A stretch of 64,000 nucleotides of DNA. It comes from Nitrospira japonica (GTDB lineage Bacteria; Nitrospirota; Thermodesulfovibrionia; Thermodesulfovibrionales; SM23-35). The number at the start of each line of letters is the position of its first letter. Within the stretch, counting starts at the first letter, position 1. The translations under genes and the position numbers were made by a program. Below are positions 34,747-45,346 of the stretch, piece after piece. The stretch lies in contig DYFC01000006.1 of NCBI GenBank assembly GCA_020725385.1, forward strand, positions 1 to 64,000. Direction: 5' to 3'. The notes beneath the pieces were generated by a model. It was given only the letters and a program-made list of their open reading frames with translations. It did no database searches and had not been told where the DNA came from.

Positions 34747-36483
34747 ATGGGTACTTGCAATAAACAATCTTATGCCACAATTGGCGAAGTCCCGGATTTA
34801 CGGAATATGCAAACCTTTTCAGCATTGGTTGACCTTCCACGTAATATTCTAATTGCAGAGGGTATTGAAGAAATCTCATTAATCATTCTTAATCATGCAA
34901 AAAAACTTACAGATAGTAAATTCGGGTTCACCGGGTACATAGACCCTCTTACAAATTATCTTATAAGTCCAACTCTTACTGTTGAAATATGGGAGAATTG
35001 TAAGATAAAAGATAAGAATTATATTTTCAAGGAATTTAAAGGATTATGGGGATGGGTCCTTTTGAATAAACAACCTTTGCTTACCAACAACCCGTCCTCC
35101 GATCCACGTTCAACCGGGATTCCGGAAGGTCATATAATAATTGAAAATTTTCTATCCGTTCCTGCATTGATAAAAGATGAACTCGTTGGTCAAATATCTC
35201 TTGCCAATTCAAGTAGAGATTATACCGAACAAGATATTATTACCTTACAACAGCTTGCGTCTCTTTATGCAATTGCAATCAATAGAAAAAGGTCTGAAGA
35301 AAAACTTATGCAGAGTCTTGAAGCATTACAGGCCGTGTATAATATAGCAACAACACTTCGTGGTTCATATGAAATGCTCTGTGAACAGGTTGTTTTTACC
35401 CTTGCGAAATTTCTCAAAATTGCCTGTGTTTCCATACAACATATTAAAGAAGATAAAGTTACAATAATCTCGAAAATATGTGATGGCATTCTTTTCCATA
35501 ATGAAACAGAATTACTAAGCGAATCTCCTTGTTTCGAGGCTATTGCTGCAAAAAAACCATTGCAGATTATTATGAAGGAAAAGAGAAAGTTTCCATTGTA
35601 CAAAAAATTCAAAAGCTGTATTCTTTCTCCTATTCTTATAGAAGGCGAAACAAAAGGTTATATATGCGCAATGGATTATTCGGAAAGAAAATTTAGTGAA
35701 GATGAACTAAGACTTCTCGAGATATTTTCAAAACACGTTGCCTATGAATTAGAGCGTATTGAAATGGAAAACAAATTAAGATACCTTGACAAAATGAAGC
35801 TTCTTGGACAGCTTGCCGCAGGAGTTGCTCATGAGGTTAGAAATCCGCTGAATGCGATTCTTGCTATTGCTGAGGCACTATTTCAGGATATTAAAGATAT
35901 AGGTGAAAATCCTGATTATTATAAACCTTTTTTAAATCATATCAGAAGTCAGGTTGATCGTCTCTCAAATCTTATGTCCGACCTTCTTGATCTCGGCAAA
36001 CCGATTAAACACGAAACTTTTCAGAAGGAATATTTACCGGAAATATGTCTTGCAACAATTGATCTTTGGAAACAAACTCCTTTGTCGAAGGACTATAAAA
36101 TAATCTTTATTCAGCCTGAGGAAAAAGAAAATCTTTATTTAATGGCTGACAGCTCACGCTTACAACAGGTTTTTTTAAATGTGATCGAAAATGCATGTAA
36201 TCATAGTCCCAGGGGAAGTGATATACAATTTATCATTTTAAATCCAAAAGGAGGGTTTATTAAAATTCAAGTTATTGATCAGGGAACAGGTGTGCCTTCA
36301 GAAAACCTTCCAAAGGTTTTCGAACCTTTCTTCACTTCACGTAAAAAAGGAACCGGTCTTGGCTTAAGTCTGGTAAAACATATTGTACAATCACATGGAG
36401 GCGAGGTTACAATTTGGAACAATACACCTTCACCGGGATGCACGATTGAAATAACTTTACCTTTATTTAAAGGGGAAGAATAA
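34747..36483 (+). CDS. Cytoplasmic GAF-GAF sensor histidine kinase
   Basis: GAF motif (NNPSSDPRSTGIPEGH...FLSVP), a second GAF, AHEVRNPL, GTGLGL; no TM segments. Confidence 0.92.
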   Translation: MGTCNKQSYATIGEVPDLRNMQTFSALVDLPRNILIAEGIEEISLIILNHAKKLTDSKFGFTGYIDPLTNYLISPTLTVEIWENCKIKDKNYIFKEFKGLWGWVLLNKQPLLTNNPSSDPRSTGIPEGHIIIENFLSVPALIKDELVGQISLANSSRDYTEQDIITLQQLASLYAIAINRKRSEEKLMQSLEALQAVYNIATTLRGSYEMLCEQVVFTLAKFLKIACVSIQHIKEDKVTIISKICDGILFHNETELLSESPCFEAIAAKKPLQIIMKEKRKFPLYKKFKSCILSPILIEGETKGYICAMDYSERKFSEDELRLLEIFSKHVAYELERIEMENKLRYLDKMKLLGQLAAGVAHEVRNPLNAILAIAEALFQDIKDIGENPDYYKPFLNHIRSQVDRLSNLMSDLLDLGKPIKHETFQKEYLPEICLATIDLWKQTPLSKDYKIIFIQPEEKENLYLMADSSRLQQVFLNVIENACNHSPRGSDIQFIILNPKGGFIKIQVIDQGTGVPSENLPKVFEPFFTSRKKGTGLGLSLVKHIVQSHGGEVTIWNNTPSPGCTIEITLPLFKGEE

Positions 36484-37838
36484 TGAATCCAAGAATTCTT
36501 TTAATTGATGACGAAGATGCTACAAGGTTTGGTTTCTCCCGCTATCTTTCAAAAGCAGGTTATATAGTTCATGAAGCAGCAAATCTTTTCGAAGCACGGG
36601 AATCAATTAACTCCCAGAGATATGATGCTGTATTGCTCGATGTAAACCTTCCCGATGGAAGCGGCCTGGATTGGATTATAGATGTAAGACAAAGTTACCC
36701 CGACATACCAATAGTAGTTATTACAGGTTATGGAGATATTCCTGTTGCCGTAGAAGCCATGAGACGCGGAGCGGATAATTTTCTTACAAAACCTGTAAAC
36801 ATGGCTGACCTCGAAGTCTTTTTAAGAAAAAGTCTTGAAATTGGTTCTTTAAGAAGAAGACATTTAATAGACAAGAGATTATCAAAAAAACCTCAAATAT
36901 ATTTTGGTGAAAGTCCGGGCATGAAAAAAGTCCTTGAACTTGCAAAACTTGCTGCACAGAATGATTCTCCGGTCGTTATATCAGGTGAAACCGGCTCCGG
37001 AAAAGGTGTACTTGCAAAATGGCTTCATGAAAACAGTCTGCGTAGTTCATCTTCATATGTTGAGGTTAATTGCTCTAATTTAAGGGGCGATTTGCTTGCA
37101 AGTGAATTATTCGGGCATGCAAAAGGTGCTTTTACTTCTGCAATTCAGGAAAAACAGGGACTGATTGAAGTTGCCGATGGGGGAACCCTTTTCCTTGATG
37201 AGATTGGAGATATGGATATAAGCGTCCAGGCACAGTTCCTTAAGGTTATAGAGGAAAAACAATATCGCCGTCTCGGAGAAGTAAAAACCAGGAGCAGTGA
37301 TTTTAGACTAATTTGTGCGACAAACAGGGATCTTCTCGACGACATAAAAAAAGGCTCCTTTCGCAAGGATCTTTATTTCCGGATAAATGTTCTCCCCATC
37401 GAAATACCACCCTTGAGGGAAAGGCCTGAAGATATTCCCGGACTCGTTGAACACATAATCAGGAGTTTAAGTCCTCAACCCGTTGAGATAACGGCTGATG
37501 TTATGAAATTACTACAGGAATATTCATGGCCGGGCAATATAAGAGAGCTAAAAAATGTTCTCGAGAGAGCTTTATTGCTTTCTCACGGGAAACAAATGAC
37601 TACCGAACATTTTTACGACCTTGAACCCGCAACTCCTGAAATTCCAATGCGTTCCTCAAGTAAATATGCTGACATTGAAGAATCACATATAAGAGCAATT
37701 TTGAAAAGATTCCACGGAGATACAGCTAAAGCATCAAAAGCTCTTGGCATGTCAAGAGCAACACTTTATAGAAAACTCAAAAAATTTAGAATAACTCCTG
37801 AAGTTAATTTTGACCCCGCACCGGGAGAAGAGCAATAA
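36483..37838 (+). CDS. sigma54-dependent response regulator (NtrC/AtoC family)
   Basis: Receiver domain, GETGSGKG, ELFGHAKGAFTSA, WPGNIREL, HTH LGMSRATLYRKL. Confidence 0.93.
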   Translation: MNPRILLIDDEDATRFGFSRYLSKAGYIVHEAANLFEARESINSQRYDAVLLDVNLPDGSGLDWIIDVRQSYPDIPIVVITGYGDIPVAVEAMRRGADNFLTKPVNMADLEVFLRKSLEIGSLRRRHLIDKRLSKKPQIYFGESPGMKKVLELAKLAAQNDSPVVISGETGSGKGVLAKWLHENSLRSSSSYVEVNCSNLRGDLLASELFGHAKGAFTSAIQEKQGLIEVADGGTLFLDEIGDMDISVQAQFLKVIEEKQYRRLGEVKTRSSDFRLICATNRDLLDDIKKGSFRKDLYFRINVLPIEIPPLRERPEDIPGLVEHIIRSLSPQPVEITADVMKLLQEYSWPGNIRELKNVLERALLLSHGKQMTTEHFYDLEPATPEIPMRSSSKYADIEESHIRAILKRFHGDTAKASKALGMSRATLYRKLKKFRITPEVNFDPAPGEEQ

Positions 37839-37854
37839 TCTTTAAATTCTCAAA

Positions 37855-37892
37855 ATTCTCATCCTTGAGAATAAATTCTCAAAGATGAGAAT
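37855..37892. promoter_or_regulatory. Two tandem palindromic enhancer sites ATTCTCA-N4-TGAGAAT
   Basis: Perfect palindromes at 37855-37872 and 37875-37892, plus a half-site at 37846-37852, upstream of a -24/-12 promoter. Confidence 0.8.
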
Positions 37893-37954
37893 TTTACAAT
37901 ACCCTTCATATTCATAACTCTTTGAATAATTTACAAAAACTATCTTTTTAAACA

Positions 37955-37970
37955 TGGCATTGCTTTTGCT
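37955..37970 (+). promoter_or_regulatory. sigma54 (-24/-12) promoter
   Basis: TGGCATTGCTTTTGCT has exact GG-N10-GC spacing. Confidence 0.85.
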
Positions 37971-38027
37971 CAAATCTTTTGTAATAAAAATTCATTTCCG
38001 TTATCTTGATGAGAAGGAGCATATTGA

Positions 38028-38399
38028 ATGCAAAAACAGGTGCTTGTCGTTGATGATGAAGTAACTATACTTCTTGCTTTTAAAAAGATATTACAGAAAC
38101 CGGGAATTAATGTTGATACAGCAGAAAGTATTGAAGATGTAAAAGGGCTTCTTAATAAAAATTGTTATGATGCCGTTATTGCAGACCTGCGTCTTTCGGG
38201 CATTTCAGGCGAAGAAGGACTTGAAGTTATACGTTATGCCAAAGAATGTAACCCTGACACAAAAGTAATTCTCATGACTGCCTACGGTAATCAGGATGTA
38301 ATGAAGAAAGCTTATAGTCTTGGTGCGGCTTTTTATTTTGAAAAGCCGGTATCTGCAAATGTTCTTAAAGATGCCTTAAAGAATTTGGGGGTAACGTGA
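38028..38399 (+). CDS. Stand-alone response regulator receiver protein
   Basis: VDDE, ADLRL, MTAYG, EKP; AGGAG RBS. Confidence 0.9.
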   Translation: MQKQVLVVDDEVTILLAFKKILQKPGINVDTAESIEDVKGLLNKNCYDAVIADLRLSGISGEEGLEVIRYAKECNPDTKVILMTAYGNQDVMKKAYSLGAAFYFEKPVSANVLKDALKNLGVT

Positions 38400-38845
38400 A
38401 AGAAATGATAAAAATCAGTGATAAGATCAGAAAAGTTTTAATAGTAGATGATTCAGAACTTCTTCACAGGATGTATGATCTCATATTTTTTCGCTGCAAA
38501 AATAAAGGGCTAAGAATACTTCATGCATATGATGGCAGGGAGGCACTATCGAAATTATCCGAACACTCTGATACAGACCTGATTATTCTCGATATACATA
38601 TGCCGGTTATGGATGGTCTCCAGTTTTTAAGACATTGCAGTAAAGAAAAGATACATCAAAAAATACCTGTAATAATAACCGGAACTCAAGGTAAAGAAGA
38701 GGACACGATGGATGGGTTAAAAGCTGGAGCTAAGGGTTATCTTGTTAAACCTTTTGAAACAGAGAATTTTTATAAAGTAATAAACAAAGTTTTTTATGAG
38801 GAACCAGCAGCTTCTCAAAAAACATTGGAAGTTTCAAGAATGTAA
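38396..38845 (+). CDS. CheY-like single-domain response regulator
   Basis: VDDS, LDIHMPVMDG, VKPF. Confidence 0.9.
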   Translation: MKEMIKISDKIRKVLIVDDSELLHRMYDLIFFRCKNKGLRILHAYDGREALSKLSEHSDTDLIILDIHMPVMDGLQFLRHCSKEKIHQKIPVIITGTQGKEEDTMDGLKAGAKGYLVKPFETENFYKVINKVFYEEPAASQKTLEVSRM

Positions 38846-38873: not shown

Positions 38874-40730
38874 ATGAATATTATAAGAACAGAAGAATAC
38901 AAATTACGCAAGCAGAATATATTCTGGATAAAAACATCCTCTGCTCAACTTGTAGACGCTCTAAATCTTCTCAATCATAAGAACCCTCAAGTAGTAATAA
39001 AGACTATTCAGAAACTACGTGAAATTAGAGATTTAAGGGCACTCGAACCTTTAAGAATGCTCTTGAACCATCCTGATTTGGAAGTAGTTAGTGAAACTAT
39101 CCTTGCAATTGGTTCACTGGGAGATGAAAGGGTAGTAAATGATTTAATACCTTTTCTTAATTCAGAACCTTTACTACAAACCTCTGCGATACAAGCTTTA
39201 GGTGAAATACGCTGTCAGACAGCAATTGGTTATCTTGAACAAATGCTTACTGATTCAATTGTAGGACCAATGGTTGCAGAAACAATGGCTTTTATTGGCG
39301 GCATAGCAGCATACAAAGCACTGGCCAAACATTGGTTGAATCATGGTGAACAAATTGACACGGAAAACTATCTTAGTTTACTTAAACATGTGCTGGAAGG
39401 TATAAATTCACAAGTACCTCATATAGAAGGGATTTGTGAATCCTTCTCAAGATACCTGAATGACCCGAATGATTCAATCCGGGCATTAGCTGCTTGCTGC
39501 CTAATTGCTTCAGGGCCATGTCCTGAAGACATGAAAGCATTAAGTATAATTTCGGAAACACTCGGAGATAATATTCAACTACCTGCATGTCTAAAAAACA
39601 GGAAAGATCTTGTTCCAAGGCTCCTTAATAGCAGTGAAAATTTGATTTTATGGGGTTTTCAACTTTCAGCTTTGTATCCAAAAAACGCATCTCCCATGGA
39701 TATTCTTAATGCTTTAAAAAAATATTCGGATGAATCGGATAATATTAATTATATTGCAGATGTTTTACTCAAAGTTAAAGATCCAATTCTTGCACCTGCT
39801 ATCCTTGATTTATATTGCAGGATTTCCTGGGACAAAAGAATAATTTTACACCCTCTATTAAAGATTTATAAAAAACAAATTCGTTTATTATTGATTGATT
39901 ATGATATTGATGACGAAACAAGAATTGTAATTTCTGCACATATTGGAGTCTCCCCTGTATGCATTGCTCTTGAAATAATGGACCTGCCACTGGATAGCCG
40001 TATTCTTGTTTTGTCTCTTTTAAGTGATTGCAAAAGTATTATGAAATGTATGCCATGGTCTCAATGGCTTGAAAATAGCCCGGGATTTTACTTGAATGTG
40101 GCTGCTGATGTTACTTTGAAATCAGGGATTAAAGAAATTTTTCCTGTATTAAGAAAGATATTCCCGTCTTACCCTGTTAAAAAATTGATAAAATCAGCTG
40201 GAACACTCAAAGATAAAGAAAGTGTCTCTATACTTATAAAGCATCTCGAAACTGAATCAACAGAAACAAGGATGCTCATTCTTGAGAGTCTCGGATATAT
40301 TGGCGGCAAAGAAGCAAGGCAGGGGCTGAAAAACTATATAAAGAATTGCAAAAAAACCGGGGAATTACACAAAGCAATCAGATCACTGTCATTTTGTGCA
40401 ACATCGGAAGATTGCAGCTTTTTCAGAGAACTTTCCTCTGATTCTGACTGGCACGTAAGATCAATCTGTGCTGAAGTGCTCAGTCGCTATCCAAGCCTTG
40501 AAAATTTTGAAACACTCATAAAATTATCCTCAGACCCTGAAAAAATTGTTTCACAGCGAACTTCTTTCTTCCTGAAATATCTTCCAATGGGGAATTTTTT
40601 AATTCGCCAACAGGAGCATAACAGTTCAGACAAAGAATATCAAGATATCCAATTAGAGTCAAAAGATAAAATTGAGTCTTTTAAATATAATCATCAATTA
40701 AAGGAGCATCAAAATGTTACAGGAAATTAA
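38874..40730 (+). CDS. HEAT-repeat protein
   Basis: Repeated HEAT/PBS-lyase-like units, e.g. LLNHPDLEVVSETILAIGSLG and DSDWHVRSICAEVL. Confidence 0.82.
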   Translation: MNIIRTEEYKLRKQNIFWIKTSSAQLVDALNLLNHKNPQVVIKTIQKLREIRDLRALEPLRMLLNHPDLEVVSETILAIGSLGDERVVNDLIPFLNSEPLLQTSAIQALGEIRCQTAIGYLEQMLTDSIVGPMVAETMAFIGGIAAYKALAKHWLNHGEQIDTENYLSLLKHVLEGINSQVPHIEGICESFSRYLNDPNDSIRALAACCLIASGPCPEDMKALSIISETLGDNIQLPACLKNRKDLVPRLLNSSENLILWGFQLSALYPKNASPMDILNALKKYSDESDNINYIADVLLKVKDPILAPAILDLYCRISWDKRIILHPLLKIYKKQIRLLLIDYDIDDETRIVISAHIGVSPVCIALEIMDLPLDSRILVLSLLSDCKSIMKCMPWSQWLENSPGFYLNVAADVTLKSGIKEIFPVLRKIFPSYPVKKLIKSAGTLKDKESVSILIKHLETESTETRMLILESLGYIGGKEARQGLKNYIKNCKKTGELHKAIRSLSFCATSEDCSFFRELSSDSDWHVRSICAEVLSRYPSLENFETLIKLSSDPEKIVSQRTSFFLKYLPMGNFLIRQQEHNSSDKEYQDIQLESKDKIESFKYNHQLKEHQNVTGN

Positions 40731-41091
40731 AAAAGAAAACGAACATATTGATTTTGAACTTTACAGGTTTGTTTTTGAGACTGCTGTTGAAATTTTTGAA
40801 GAGATATTTGAAACATCAAAGAGATTCCCCCGGGAGAAGGTTTTCCTTATTGATCAGGTTCGCAGACATTCCAAACTTGTTTGTATTAATCTTGCTGAGG
40901 CATGGAGAGCAAAGAAAGACAAAAATATATTTATGGATAAAATTTCTGAAGCAGCACAGGAAGCATCCAGAGTACAGAATTGTCTAAAATTTGCTGTTAG
41001 ATGTAAATTTATAGGCAATGATGTCTTCAAAAAACTTGATTCAAAATATGAAGATATTTTCGAAATGCTCTGCGATGGAGTAAGAAGTTAA
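40714..41091 (+). CDS. Four-helix-bundle protein (23S rRNA IVP / Avd-like family)
   Basis: FPREKVFLIDQVRRHSKLVCINLAEAW and EAAQEA. Confidence 0.85.
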   Translation: MLQEIKKENEHIDFELYRFVFETAVEIFEEIFETSKRFPREKVFLIDQVRRHSKLVCINLAEAWRAKKDKNIFMDKISEAAQEASRVQNCLKFAVRCKFIGNDVFKKLDSKYEDIFEMLCDGVRS

Positions 41092-41179
41092 TAAGGTTTT
41101 AACTTTGATCTTAGACTTAACCTCCTAACCAGAAAATATAGTTTTAATTTTGTATCGTGAAATGACAACTTTTACAGGG

Positions 41180-42292
41180 TTAAGGAAATTTTTTCTGTGT
41201 ATGGCAGGTAAAACATCCTCCTGTTTTGCTATTATCTCCTGCTATCATTTCATTATAATCCCATCTAAGCATGTCAGGATATGGACTTCCATGTGCTCTA
41301 TGACATGAAAGACACATAACTCTATCAGTTCCTGGGGTTACTGTACTTGAAACAGTGCTTAGATTAGGCCGGGAAACTGGCGCTTGAGGATTATATACAG
41401 TATATGATGAATATTCACCTCTGTTGGGTATCTCTGTATCGCCTGCTGGGTGTCTAAGCCAGTTGCCATTTGAATCCCGGTTCCTATCAGGATTCAATGA
41501 ATCCCAGCTATGATAATCCCTATGACAACCAGCACAAAAATCACTTATTCCCTGAGGATTTGTATGCCCCGGTGCATATGGAGCAAAAGGTTTATCAGTA
41601 TCCCTATATTCATTATGGTCATTTGGGCTTACAGTTATTTCCCAATCTGAATCTTCAATGCCCTGCACACATGGCCTGCTTGAATGAGGAGGAATATCAA
41701 ATACCCAGGCAGGCCTGCCAAGGAAACGATAGCATCCATTTTCTTCCTTTACAATACCACCCGGTTCAGGGTCAGGAGCATGATGTCTCGGGACATGACA
41801 GCCTATGCAACCATTTCCGGTAATAGGATTGAAAACCCAATAAGGACCTGGGCCAAGCCTTATACTTGCCAGAGATGCATGACAACCGGCGAAACCACAA
41901 GTGACTCCGGTTTCAGACGCACCTGGAGCATGATTAAGTTGTTTATCAACAGTTATTACATTATGTCCGTATTCATCTCCCTTGTACTGTACATAATAAA
42001 AATTTCCACCAGCAGTCATTGTTCCTGGTTCAACAGTGTTATAAACAATTGGAACAATAGAATCCCCAAGAACTTTGGTAGGCGAACCATCTGTTGAAGA
42101 ATGACATGCTATACATTTAATATTCACAAGATGATAGCCGGGACCACCTACTTTAGGGGCTTCATTATAAAATTGAATTCCATTTTGTGAATTATGCATT
42201 GTATGACAATTAGAACAAACACCTTTAACCCGTGCATATGCTATTTGTGAAGTTATAAATAAACATAATATTGTTAAAAATATCTTCTTCAT
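41180..42292 (-). CDS. Secreted multiheme c-type cytochrome, OmcS-like
   Basis: Signal peptide ending AYA; six CxxCH plus one CX4CH; OmcS-like blocks CHTMHNS, GGNF, GHN, APG, YRFLG, LRHPAG, CLSCHRAH. Confidence 0.9.
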   Translation of the reverse strand: MKKIFLTILCLFITSQIAYARVKGVCSNCHTMHNSQNGIQFYNEAPKVGGPGYHLVNIKCIACHSSTDGSPTKVLGDSIVPIVYNTVEPGTMTAGGNFYYVQYKGDEYGHNVITVDKQLNHAPGASETGVTCGFAGCHASLASIRLGPGPYWVFNPITGNGCIGCHVPRHHAPDPEPGGIVKEENGCYRFLGRPAWVFDIPPHSSRPCVQGIEDSDWEITVSPNDHNEYRDTDKPFAPYAPGHTNPQGISDFCAGCHRDYHSWDSLNPDRNRDSNGNWLRHPAGDTEIPNRGEYSSYTVYNPQAPVSRPNLSTVSSTVTPGTDRVMCLSCHRAHGSPYPDMLRWDYNEMIAGDNSKTGGCFTCHTQKKFP

Positions 42293-42446
42293 TTTACCAT
42301 GCCTCTTCTAATGAAGTTTGTTAAGCACTTATTAATTACAATTTACGGCATTTTGAATTTATTAGCAAGAGCTAAATTTATTGCTAAAATTTAATTTCCA
42401 CAGAAATAATATCCTTATTTCAAGAAATTTATTAGGTTAATATTAC

Positions 42447-42475
42447 TTGACATACCCCGCACAGCTATATATTAT
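42447..42475 (+). promoter_or_regulatory. Possible sigma70 promoter
   Basis: TTGACA, 17-nt spacer, TATTAT. Confidence 0.35.
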
Positions 42476-42525
42476 TTTCGATAATATAATAAATTTAAAA
42501 ATCAATGTTATGCATAAAACAAATT

Positions 42526-42716
42526 ATGACTTACGAATTTAGTGTTAAAAAGTACGAAAGCGCTTCCGATCATCAAAAAGAATTGGGCAAAAAATAATAG
42601 CTGAATTAGGACTGAGAGGAAATGAAAAAATACTTGATTTGGGCTGTTGTGACGGAGAACTTACTAAAAACCTATCCCGTCTTGTGCCAGATGGGTATTA
42701 GGCATTGATGTTTCCA
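42526..42716 (+). pseudogene. Frameshifted, truncated class I SAM methyltransferase (Tam-like) remnant
   Basis: MTYEFSVKKYESASDHQKELG / shift / IIAELGLRGNEKILDLGCCDGELTKNLSRLVPDG / shift / VLGIDVS*. Confidence 0.7.
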
Positions 42717-42728
42717 CCTGAAAAATCG

Positions 42729-42851
42729 ATAAAGCTTAAGCGTGTATATGACCCACCTTCAAAGGATTATGGCAAGAGAATCCTTGTTGATAGGCGGCAA
42801 AGGGGCTTCAGGAAGAATGAAGCAAAAATTGATGAATGGTTAAATGAGTAA
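42729..42851 (+). pseudogene. Truncated DUF488 (YeaO-like) remnant
   Basis: IKLKRVYDPPSKDYGKRILVDRRQRGFRKNEAKIDEWLNE* matches the DUF488 N-terminus, then stops. Confidence 0.75.
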
Positions 42852-42919
42852 TAAGTTTGAAGAAAGCTACCCATCATGCATTAGGCTCACTACATAGCTT
42901 ATCTACTTTGAGGTGAGAT

Positions 42920-45346
42920 ATGGATTTAAAAATCCGCAATACATCTGAATACGAAAAGCTTTCCATTGATGACACACTCAAGGTTTTGGATACATCAATG
43001 AATGGGCTTAATGAATCCGAGGCTGAAAACAGGCTAAAGTTATTCGGATATAACGAGATAACAGAGAAAAAGAAAAACCCCTTGCTCGAATTCCTGCTGC
43101 GCTACTGGGGGTCGATGCCCTGGCTGCTGGAATTGGCAATGGCGCTTTCACTCATATTGAGGCATTATCTTGAGGGGATAATTATCTTTGTGCTCCTTAC
43201 GGTTAACGCAGTCATAGGCCATATGCATTCACGGGGTTCTCAAAGGGCTGTTGAGCTTTTGAAGAAGAAGCTCGCTGTTCAGGCAAAGGCATTGCGGGAT
43301 GGTAAATGGATAATAAAAGTGGGAAAGGAAATTGTGCCAGGAGATATTATTGCTGTAAAGCTCGGCGATATAATTCCTGCTGATGCAAAGATATTAAGCG
43401 GTGAACTTTCTATTGACCAATCAGCCCTTACCGGAGAATCCCTCCCGGCAAATGCAAAACAATCGGATATTGTTTATTCTGGCTCTGTAGTAAGGCAGGG
43501 AGAGGCCAGATGCGTTGTTGTAAATACAGGCATAAATACATACTTCGGCAAGACAGCAGAACTGGTCAGGATAGCAAAGCCAAAGTCCCATCAAGAGGAA
43601 GTGATGATGGCTATAGTTAGATACATGATGTATCTGGGCATAGCCGCATTAGTTCTTGTTCTGGCATATGGTTTGGCGATGCATATTCAGGAGCATTTTG
43701 TGACTGTGCTTACCCTCGCTGTTATCTTTCTCATGGGAGCGGTGCCTGTTGCCCTTCCTGCAGTTCTCACCATAGTTCAGGCAGTGGGTGCAATGGAGCT
43801 TGCAAAAAAGGGGGCACTGGTAACAAGGCTTGATTCAATAGAAGACGCTGCCTCCATCGATGTGCTCTGTCTTGATAAAACAGGCACAATAACACAGAAC
43901 AGATTGTCGGTTGCTGACAGCATAACATTTTCAGATTATAAGAAAGAGGATGTTGTTAGAATAGCTGCTCTGGCCTCACAAGAGGAAGGCATGGACATAA
44001 TAGACCTTGCAGTTATCGAATATGCTAAAGGCATGGGAGTCGATTTTAATGCATACAAACAGATTTCTTATACGCCATTCAACCCTTCAATCAAGAGGAC
44101 AGAGGCTATTGTTGAAATTAATGGAAAACAGTTCAGGGCTATTAAAGGAGCTGCACAGGTAGTTATGTCCATGTGTCGTGGAATTGATAAGGGGACGACA
44201 GATAATGCAAATAAAATAATAGAGGAGTTTTCTCAGAAAGGGTATAGGACAATAGCAGTTGCAAGATCAGAGGGCGATGATTTAGATAATCTTAAGCTTA
44301 TCGGATTACTGCCTCTCTCAGACCCTCCCAGACCCGATTCCAAAGGCATGATAGAGGAGGCAAGAAGGCTTGGAGTAAAGCCGATGATGCTTACAGGAGA
44401 TAACATAGCCATAGCAAAAGAAATAGCCCGTCAGGTAGAGATCGGCGATAAGATTATCAGGCTTGAGGACATTAAAGGCCTGAGCGAGGATGAACAGATA
44501 AAGATTGTTGGTGAGATTGACGGCCTTGCAGAGATATATCCAGAGGACAAATACAGGGTTGTGAAGCTCCTTCAGTCAAAAGGGCATTTGGTGGGCATGA
44601 CAGGAGACGGGGTAAATGATGCCCCGGCCCTGAAACAGGCAGAGATGGGGATAGCTGTTTACAATGCAGCGGATGTGGCAAAGGCATCTGCGAGCGTGGT
44701 CTTAACAGAATCGGGCATAGGCGTAATAATCGATGCAGTAAGAATAAGCAGGCAGACATACCAGAGGATGCTTTCATGGGTAATAAACAAAGTTACAAAG
44801 GTCATAGAATTTGTGGGACTGTTGACCATAAGCTTTTTATGGCTCCATGACATTGTCCTTTCACTTCTCGGAATGTCACTCCTTGTATTTGCCAATGATT
44901 TCGTCACCATGACCCTGTCAACGGACAATGTGAAACATACGGGTAATCCAAACAAGTGGAATGTAAAGAACATCACAATCGCATCTCTCATTCCGGGCAT
45001 GCTGCTGGTGATTGAAGGAATCATTGTAATCCTGATCGGCCTAAAATATTTTCATCTTGAATGGGAGAAGCTGCGCACTTTAGTAATGCTGAATCTAATA
45101 TTTAACAGCCAGTTCAGGGTATTGATTATAAGGGAGAGGAGGCACTTCTGGTCATCCATGCCAGGCAGGGAATTATTAGTCCTGAGTGCTGCTACGATTA
45201 TAGGATTCGGACTATTAGGTGTATATGGCATCTTTGTCCCAGCGCTTACATTGCATCATGTTCTCACTGTTCTTGCTTTTTCTGCCATATTCACCCTCGG
45301 CATAGATTTTCCGAAGTATTATCTATTCAGAAGATTTGGATTATAA
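42920..45346 (+). CDS. Plasma-membrane-type proton-efflux P-type ATPase (P3A)
   Basis: DQSALTGES, PVALP, DKTGT, KGA, DPPR, TGDGVNDAPALK, and a TM6 Asp in FANDF. Confidence 0.92.
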   Translation: MDLKIRNTSEYEKLSIDDTLKVLDTSMNGLNESEAENRLKLFGYNEITEKKKNPLLEFLLRYWGSMPWLLELAMALSLILRHYLEGIIIFVLLTVNAVIGHMHSRGSQRAVELLKKKLAVQAKALRDGKWIIKVGKEIVPGDIIAVKLGDIIPADAKILSGELSIDQSALTGESLPANAKQSDIVYSGSVVRQGEARCVVVNTGINTYFGKTAELVRIAKPKSHQEEVMMAIVRYMMYLGIAALVLVLAYGLAMHIQEHFVTVLTLAVIFLMGAVPVALPAVLTIVQAVGAMELAKKGALVTRLDSIEDAASIDVLCLDKTGTITQNRLSVADSITFSDYKKEDVVRIAALASQEEGMDIIDLAVIEYAKGMGVDFNAYKQISYTPFNPSIKRTEAIVEINGKQFRAIKGAAQVVMSMCRGIDKGTTDNANKIIEEFSQKGYRTIAVARSEGDDLDNLKLIGLLPLSDPPRPDSKGMIEEARRLGVKPMMLTGDNIAIAKEIARQVEIGDKIIRLEDIKGLSEDEQIKIVGEIDGLAEIYPEDKYRVVKLLQSKGHLVGMTGDGVNDAPALKQAEMGIAVYNAADVAKASASVVLTESGIGVIIDAVRISRQTYQRMLSWVINKVTKVIEFVGLLTISFLWLHDIVLSLLGMSLLVFANDFVTMTLSTDNVKHTGNPNKWNVKNITIASLIPGMLLVIEGIIVILIGLKYFHLEWEKLRTLVMLNLIFNSQFRVLIIRERRHFWSSMPGRELLVLSAATIIGFGLLGVYGIFVPALTLHHVLTVLAFSAIFTLGIDFPKYYLFRRFGL

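Follow-up and report, generated by a model that had tools for sequence, protein, structure and literature searches.

The gene at 41180..42292 (-) of the window, the whole 64,000-nucleotide stretch of DNA that was analyzed, encodes a multiheme c-type cytochrome with seven heme-binding motifs. It is a new member of an already described family of OmcS-like proteins, sister to the nanowire cytochrome OmcS, and not a new protein type. The product is a plausible candidate wire subunit; as the best reading of its role we lean toward an extracellular, polymerizing cytochrome, on the basis of homology, conserved interface residues, and an osc-like toolkit in the genome. For the wires that link sulfate reducers, iron reducers, and methane-oxidizing consortia to their partners and to minerals, OmcS-like cytochromes are the foremost candidates. 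One more well-conserved example of the family by itself leaves that picture unchanged; the six paralogs and osc-like cluster of this 2.46-Mb genome nevertheless form a compact system for asking whether the seventh motif binds heme and where it lies relative to the conductive chain.

Gene and Sequence Features

The gene is a single open reading frame with an ATG start, encoding 370 amino acids, and the interval includes the stop codon. Its features, with the evidence for each, are as follows.

41180..42292 (-): coding sequence of the OmcS-like multiheme c-type cytochrome (open reading frame, OmcS homology, AF2 model with pLDDT 87.1)
42302..42308 (-): putative ribosome-binding site, purine-rich GAAGAGG, its last G 9 nt upstream of the ATG (sequence reading)
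42233..42292 (-): putative signal peptide, residues 1-20 (MKK, hydrophobic core, AYA), with predicted cleavage before Arg21 (sequence, model helix at residues 2-13, alignment with the OmcS signal)
42194..42217 (-): heme site 1, CSNCH (C26, C29, H30), with His33, the equivalent of OmcS His16 (motif scan, alignment)
42101..42115 (-): heme site 2, CIACH (C60, C63, H64) (motif scan; invariant in the family)
41879..41899 (-): heme site 3, CGFAGCH (CX4CH; C132, C137, H138), probably the motif absent from OmcS (alignments, method-dependent)
41780..41809 (-): heme site 4, CIGCH (C162, C165, H166), with the conserved His170-His171, probably the equivalent of OmcS heme 3 (CSSCH-DP-H) (profile alignment, L-INS-i, family spacing)
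41510..41536 (-): heme site 5, CAGCH (C253, C256, H257), with His261 (motif scan, alignment)
41291..41314 (-): heme site 6, CLSCHRAH (C327, C330, H331, H334), the equivalent of OmcS C328/C331/H332 (alignments)
41201..41215 (-): heme site 7, CFTCH (C360, C363, H364), the equivalent of the C-terminal CNKCH of OmcS (motif scan, alignment)

The N-terminus, MKKIFLTILCLFITSQIAYA followed by Arg21, has the n/h/c layout of a Sec-type signal as judged by sequence reading, and it aligns with the signal of OmcS, whose end falls where the 6EF8 chain starts; sequence reading found no lipobox in it. Six CxxCH motifs were observed, against a mean of 0.038 and a maximum of 2 in 20,000 shuffles of the protein, and a motif scan for CxxCK found none in the cytochrome. 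The Sec signal, six CxxCH motifs, and single CX4CH motif (CGFAGCH) reported for 41180-42292 in the initial annotation were all recovered by motif scan and sequence reading. The block pattern of OmcS given in that annotation also proved accurate, every block being present in both proteins in pairwise alignments; in the cytochrome the blocks read CSNCHTMHNS, MTAGGNF, GHN...APG, YRFLG, GISDFCAGCHRDYH, LRHPAG, CLSCHRAH, and a terminal CFTCH.

An Rfam search of 40500-43500 (E <= 1) found no riboswitch in the 5' region, its sole match being a chance one to a snoRNA model inside the coding sequence. A promoter/terminator scan gave promoter-like sites at the shuffle level (11 versus 8.7) and no terminator, and a regular-expression search of 42293-42920, ahead of the cytochrome gene, found no sigma-54 -24/-12 elements.

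Relationship to OmcS

By sequence comparison, homology to OmcS is certain but distant. A single-sequence phmmer search of the PDB gave OmcS (6ef8_A) with an E of 1.8e-6 across residues 25-345, hmmsearch with a 150-member family profile gave 6EF8 at E 5e-28 (101 bits), and hhalign of the family profile against a profile of 11 OmcS-clade sequences gave a probability of 100 and E 3.7e-46 over 296 columns. In BLASTP the protein is 26% identical over 400 columns (E 6e-16) to the OmcS of genome G066, the reference used here (ORF L098:1652-3100(-), which scores 937.8 bits to the 6EF8 chain over residues 1-407). All four comparisons bear out the OmcS homology of the initial annotation as real and full-length. 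Besides OmcS, the family profile found in the PDB only weak C-terminal matches to NrfA-type cytochromes.

The AF2 model, made from a 150-row alignment, has a pTM of 0.85 along with its pLDDT of 87.1 and is least confident at residues 121-160 and 231-280. Foldseek returned four PDB matches at E <= 10, of which only OmcS 6ef8_A was significant (E <= 0.001), with E 2.8e-8 and probability 1.00. Superposition on OmcS gave TM values of 0.48/0.45, which stand without calibration (an AF2 model of OmcS itself from 11 rows reached a pLDDT of 35.1), and an rmsd of 11.8. In the PDB, searched by both sequence and fold, there was no structure of any seven-motif member of the sister family, only OmcS itself.

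Placement in the Sister Family

The family is very large: 2774 proteins among 3552 candidates match at E <= 1e-3 (996 cluster representatives at 50% identity), and at least 488 of the 600 candidate stretches listed from species-representative genomes encode a relative. Among the matches listed, titled records come mostly from Thermodesulfobacteriota (Desulfofervidaceae, Desulfuromonadales, Desulfobulbaceae, and Desulfurivibrionaceae) and Nitrospirota, with one Aquificota MAG.

A maximum likelihood tree (LG+G4, quick search) was built from 81 rows sampled from the available sequences, namely, the window protein, its five paralogs from the same genome, 11 ORFs of the OmcS clade (Geobacter OmcS/OmcT/OscC), 14 proteins from databases, and 50 related-locus ORFs (a random 32 of the 99 with high scores, a few chosen by name, and all 12 with low scores). 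The 11 OmcS-clade rows split from the 70 family rows, which include the window protein, at 100% SH-aLRT, so that the phylogeny proposed as a check in the initial annotation puts the protein outside the OmcS clade. It falls in a starred group of nine rows whose other members are metagenome proteins only, and its nearest relatives (74-77% identical) come solely from metagenomes. His2, part of an N-terminal FH(S/E/D)GG, occurs in all 11 OmcS-clade rows and in none of the 70 family rows; each of the 11 OmcS-clade ORFs has six CxxCH motifs, against seven motifs in the window protein. On this sequence evidence the protein is not an OmcS ortholog and is a member of a separate sister family.

One paper describes seven-motif (CX2-5CH) OmcS-like proteins as a sister clade of OmcS and reports a seven-motif homolog of Desulfurivibrio alkaliphilus that rises more than 100-fold on iron oxide and is predicted to polymerize (PMC12545173). 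In syntrophic sulfate reducers, OmcS-like proteins are multi-copy, are among the most expressed proteins, and have been proposed as electron-accepting filaments (PMC10553843); Ca. Desulfofervidus auxilii has an OmcS-like protein, which is cited together with five-motif relatives (PMC9539880).

The Seventh Motif

The window protein has two motifs between its GHN and YRxL blocks, where OmcS has a single one (CSSCH). Across 365 non-redundant family members this interval holds two motifs in 250, one in 106, none in 7, and three in 2; the seven-motif layout is common and is therefore the family norm rather than a peculiarity of this gene. The proposal of a "heptaheme variant" in the initial annotation accordingly holds in that there is one heme motif more than in OmcS, but not as a trait particular to the gene. 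In the 199 two-motif members selected with strict anchors, the first site is CX2 (65), CX3 (39), CX4 (77), or CX5 (18), whereas the second is always CX2CH, with HH 3-4 residues on in 169 and Pro at +2 in 86.

The site that corresponds to CSSCH of OmcS differs with the method. In phmmer, hmmsearch, and BLASTP it is the CX4CH site that lines up with CSSCH, with a low posterior in the HMMER alignments; in hhalign and L-INS-i, CIGCH takes that position and the CX4CH segment becomes an insertion. A CH-x-P-(x)-H pattern is shared, being invariantly CH-D-P-H in the OmcS clade and CH-V-P-R-HH in the window protein. Because hhalign, L-INS-i, and this signature agree, we prefer CX4CH, which in our judgment is quite probably the extra motif relative to OmcS. 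The reverse assignment from the HMMER alignments, with CIGCH as the extra motif, was dropped on those same results. The profile-profile alignment thus favors the earlier view of CX4CH as a seventh site beyond those of OmcS; the label "non-canonical" given to it was overstated, since CX4CH is listed among known heme-binding variants (PMC11492766).

Six-heme members of the family take two forms. In 55 of 67 the site is CX5CH with HH about 15 residues on, and in 12 of 67 it is CX2CH, nine of these with HH 3-4 residues on, as in OmcS. This pattern suggests that either of the two central heme sites may have been lost independently.

The cytochrome probably carries seven hemes, all seven sites being presumed to be loaded. 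Eight non-motif histidines are conserved in the family (residues 33, 110, 170, 171, 226, 261, 281, and 334), as are all seven motifs, and they numerically suffice for seven bis-His hemes. Their number is nevertheless no proof of a sixth ligand on the extra heme, because the one-motif (six-heme) members keep all eight; as a test of the distal ligand of a seventh heme, the count of conserved histidines was set aside as not diagnostic.

The features of the CX4CH site bear on whether the protein could instead be a redox enzyme in which this variable site holds a five-coordinate catalytic heme. The unusually variable spacing, from CX2 to CX5, would be compatible with such a role, as would the seventh motif of the homolog DA_402, which lacks a paired His in the published model (PMC12545173). 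There are also weak profile matches to NrfA-type cytochrome c-552 (E 1.3e-4 to 1.5e-3), but they cover the C-terminal third only and are far weaker than the match to OmcS. With no CxxCK motif, no partner enzyme gene nearby, and conserved histidines enough for seven bis-His hemes, a catalytic role appears highly improbable.

A bolder variant of the wire reading is that the CX2-5CH insertion (residues about 125-160, where the model is least confident) provides a real seventh heme beside a six-heme OmcS chain, and that this stand-alone paralog forms a separate kind of filament put together in trans by the osc-like machinery. We regard this combination as unlikely. If true, side taps at regular intervals would let electrons enter or leave the filament laterally.

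Histidine 33 and Proposed Polymerization

In OmcS, as Wang et al. are said to have found in 2019, His16 ligates heme 5 of the neighboring subunit, and we take the heme of C328/C331/H332 to be the recipient of the next subunit's His16. The L-INS-i alignment places His33 of the window protein with His16, and C327/C330/H331 with C328/C331/H332. His33 is a histidine in 102 of 106 one-motif rows and in 245 of 250 two-motif rows; the retention of His16 remarked on in the initial annotation is therefore correct, and the residue is nearly universal in the family. The CHTMH and CLSCHRAH blocks are the most conserved parts of the family. An interfacial heme ligated by His of two subunits is described for OmcS (PMC12954529). 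Conservation of His33 would be equally expected if it ligated a heme of its own chain. A two-copy complex prediction (residues 21-370, four hemes, without controls) gave an ipSAE of 0.00 in both runs and is uninformative either way on polymerization.

The protein might alternatively be a non-polymerizing multiheme cytochrome, a periplasmic or loosely surface-associated monomer that shuttles or stores electrons with all hemes ligated within the chain. The only targeting signal evident is a Sec one, the gene has no export gene beside it, and the TM to the OmcS subunit is below 0.5, all of which would suit a monomer; the PDB, by sequence or fold, contains no filament of any sister-family member, and the hemes of OmcZ are all ligated within the subunit, so that inter-subunit ligation is not universal among wires (PMC12954529). 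However, the CHTMH and CLSCHRAH blocks that are so well conserved are those that form the inter-subunit contact in OmcS, osc-like secretion genes are linked to paralogs in the genome, and the AF2 oligomer models published for a family member assemble into filaments (PMC12545173). We consider a monomer rather unlikely. Counted against the polymerizing reading, toward which we lean, were the TM below 0.5, the absence of His2, the lack of an adjacent export or cytochrome gene, and the lack of any same-genus copy above 45% identity.

Gene Neighborhood and Lineage

A P-type ATPase gene borders the cytochrome gene on one side. On the other, genes for a 23S-rRNA-IVS-type protein and a HEAT-repeat protein are accompanied by those for a sigma-54 activator, a GAF histidine kinase, and two receiver proteins. 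The GAF histidine kinase, the sigma-54-dependent response regulator, and the two stand-alone receivers occupy 34747-38845 (+), upstream of the 618-amino-acid HEAT-repeat protein. The gene for the 125-amino-acid 23S rRNA intervening-sequence protein (PF05635; 40714-41091 (+)) shares 17 nt with the end of the HEAT-repeat gene and is convergent with the cytochrome gene. Between the cytochrome and P-type ATPase genes, at 42541-42900 (+), is a decayed SAM-dependent methyltransferase gene, in which a motif like ILDLGCCDGELT is visible and stops and frameshifts run across all three frames. No osc, omcT, export, cytochrome, or partner enzyme gene adjoins the cytochrome gene. The earlier remark that the gene "stands alone" is apt for its surroundings, where the neighbors are unrelated, but not for the genome as a whole, where five paralogs and an osc-like cluster occur.

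Among 31 genomes, the organism's own and those of relatives, 15 have a match at E <= 1e-10. The best copies in five genomes of the same genus are 38-45% identical and none exceeds 45%, so there is no ortholog of the window copy in them and the gene is not a core gene of the lineage. The closest locus among the matches listed (L007, 76%) has different flanks and a downstream 7-heme gene that resembles the one on contig C45. The GC content of the gene is 0.403, against 0.347 for the genome, and its GC3 is 0.224, on which codon use looks native; no mobile-element genes were seen when recent horizontal transfer was considered.

Paralogs and an osc-Like Cluster

The host genome is 96.6% complete and has 27 ORFs with at least three CxxCH motifs, three secretins, and a dsrA above the curated cut-off (590 bits); the initial annotation's "non-Geobacter anaerobe" fits this dsrA-bearing host. 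Five further family members, 35-47% identical, bring the genome's total to six, one of the five being on contig C5 and four on C45. They are spread over different subclades of the tree and are therefore old. Three of those on C45 (26316-30812) are of the one-motif type. One of them, C45:29745-30812 (-), has CDVCHNLYPG in place of CxxCHTMHNS and no equivalent of His16/His33, and it sits on a long branch and has an unusual composition; judging from its sequence, it may be a chain-end or non-polymerizing variant.

The stretch C45:9541-30812 (loci L096 and L097) resembles an osc/oet extracellular electron transfer cluster and starts with three one-motif OmcS-like genes. Running in one direction, the cluster encodes a beta-propeller, an 816-amino-acid protein of no family, two small proteins, an LpoB/CsgG-like lipoprotein, a PPIase, a 26-heme cytochrome, a 16-heme cytochrome, a two-motif family member, and a 7-heme cytochrome. 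In tblastn searches of the genome, the ORFs downstream of omcS in G066 matched C45 genes in the same order, including the 26-heme protein (39% identity, E 2e-145), a 199-amino-acid lipoprotein (E 1e-27), a 392-amino-acid protein (E 2e-27), and the propeller (E 2e-20); the PPIase was equated with its G066 counterpart by domain and position only. By gene numbers, the G066 genes correspond to oscD-oscJ, the operon that accompanies omcS and has been proposed to act in OmcS folding, secretion, and morphology (PMC13194489); apparently the same cassette has been named oetABI (PMC10553843).

One family gene is present in 49 of 79 related loci and two to six in the other 30. In 11 of the 79 loci the flanks include an ORF with at least 20 CxxCH motifs, which in nine of them is a 26-CxxCH ORF. 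At L035, L057, L071, and L080, all from uncultured bacteria, four to six family genes stand in tandem.

The multiplicity of family genes raises the question of whether the window protein is a minor or specialized subunit that co-assembles with the five paralogs, as part of a mixed filament, a cap, or an adaptor, and forms no homopolymer. Six old paralogs in different subclades would accord with this, as would the tandem arrays of two to six family genes in 30 of 79 loci and the paralog without a His33 equivalent, which would suit a chain-end subunit. OmcS filaments, however, are homopolymeric despite close Geobacter paralogs (PMC12954529); we consider such a role quite unlikely.

Proposed Role

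The reading we prefer, a polymerizing extracellular cytochrome, would proceed as follows. The c-type cytochrome would be exported through Sec and would then most likely pass beyond the outer membrane, with export provided in trans by the osc/oet-like machinery encoded on contig C45. Subunits would probably polymerize head to tail in the manner of OmcS, His33 of one subunit completing the coordination of the CLSCH heme (C327/C330/H331) of the next. The filament would serve extracellular electron transfer in a sulfite-reductase-bearing host. Since the protein is outside the OmcS clade, these properties of OmcS are extrapolated over about 26% identity.

Comparison with Known Systems

A local resemblance exists to the tetraheme cytochrome c3 of Desulfovibrio (e.g., PDB 1I77), which has CGxxGCH (CX4CH) followed about 25 residues on by CIGCH, much as in residues 132-166 of the window protein. 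The match covers 48 residues and is not significant (phmmer E 0.057), and the two proteins have no overall homology.

The closest characterized counterpart is OmcS of Geobacter sulfurreducens (GSU2504; PDB 6EF8/6NEF), a hexaheme nanowire cytochrome. The two are homologous over nearly their full length, share the block order CxxCHTMHNS, GGxF, GHN, APG, YRxLG, CAxCH, LRHP, CLSCHRAH, and terminal CxxCH, have equivalents of His16 and His332, and have a Sec signal that stops just ahead of the first heme motif. In contrast, OmcS has six motifs to the seven of the window protein, which belongs to a separate clade, lacks the His2 of the OmcS clade, and has a conserved HH170/171 and His226 that are absent from OmcS. 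The window protein is also shorter in its C-terminal region (370 amino acids against 432-434 for the OmcS precursor), and its gene has no adjoining omcT or osc genes.

DA_402 of Desulfurivibrio alkaliphilus and its relatives are alike in having seven predicted CX2-5CH motifs, six of which align with OmcS, and DA_402 is predicted to be extracellular (PMC12545173). Proteins of Desulfurivibrio MAGs (L048 and L076) belong to the same family as the window protein, which is only 37-38% identical to Desulfurivibrio MAG proteins. Desulfofervidaceae MAG proteins likewise cluster with it.

The OmcS-like cytochromes of the syntrophic sulfate reducers that partner ANME (PMC10553843; HS1_000170 in PMC9539880) differ in that the window copy is the only paralog of its genome away from any cassette. 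They are otherwise alike in having several paralogs per genome and in their association with an oet/osc cassette that holds very large multiheme cytochromes, the same layout that is found on contig C45.
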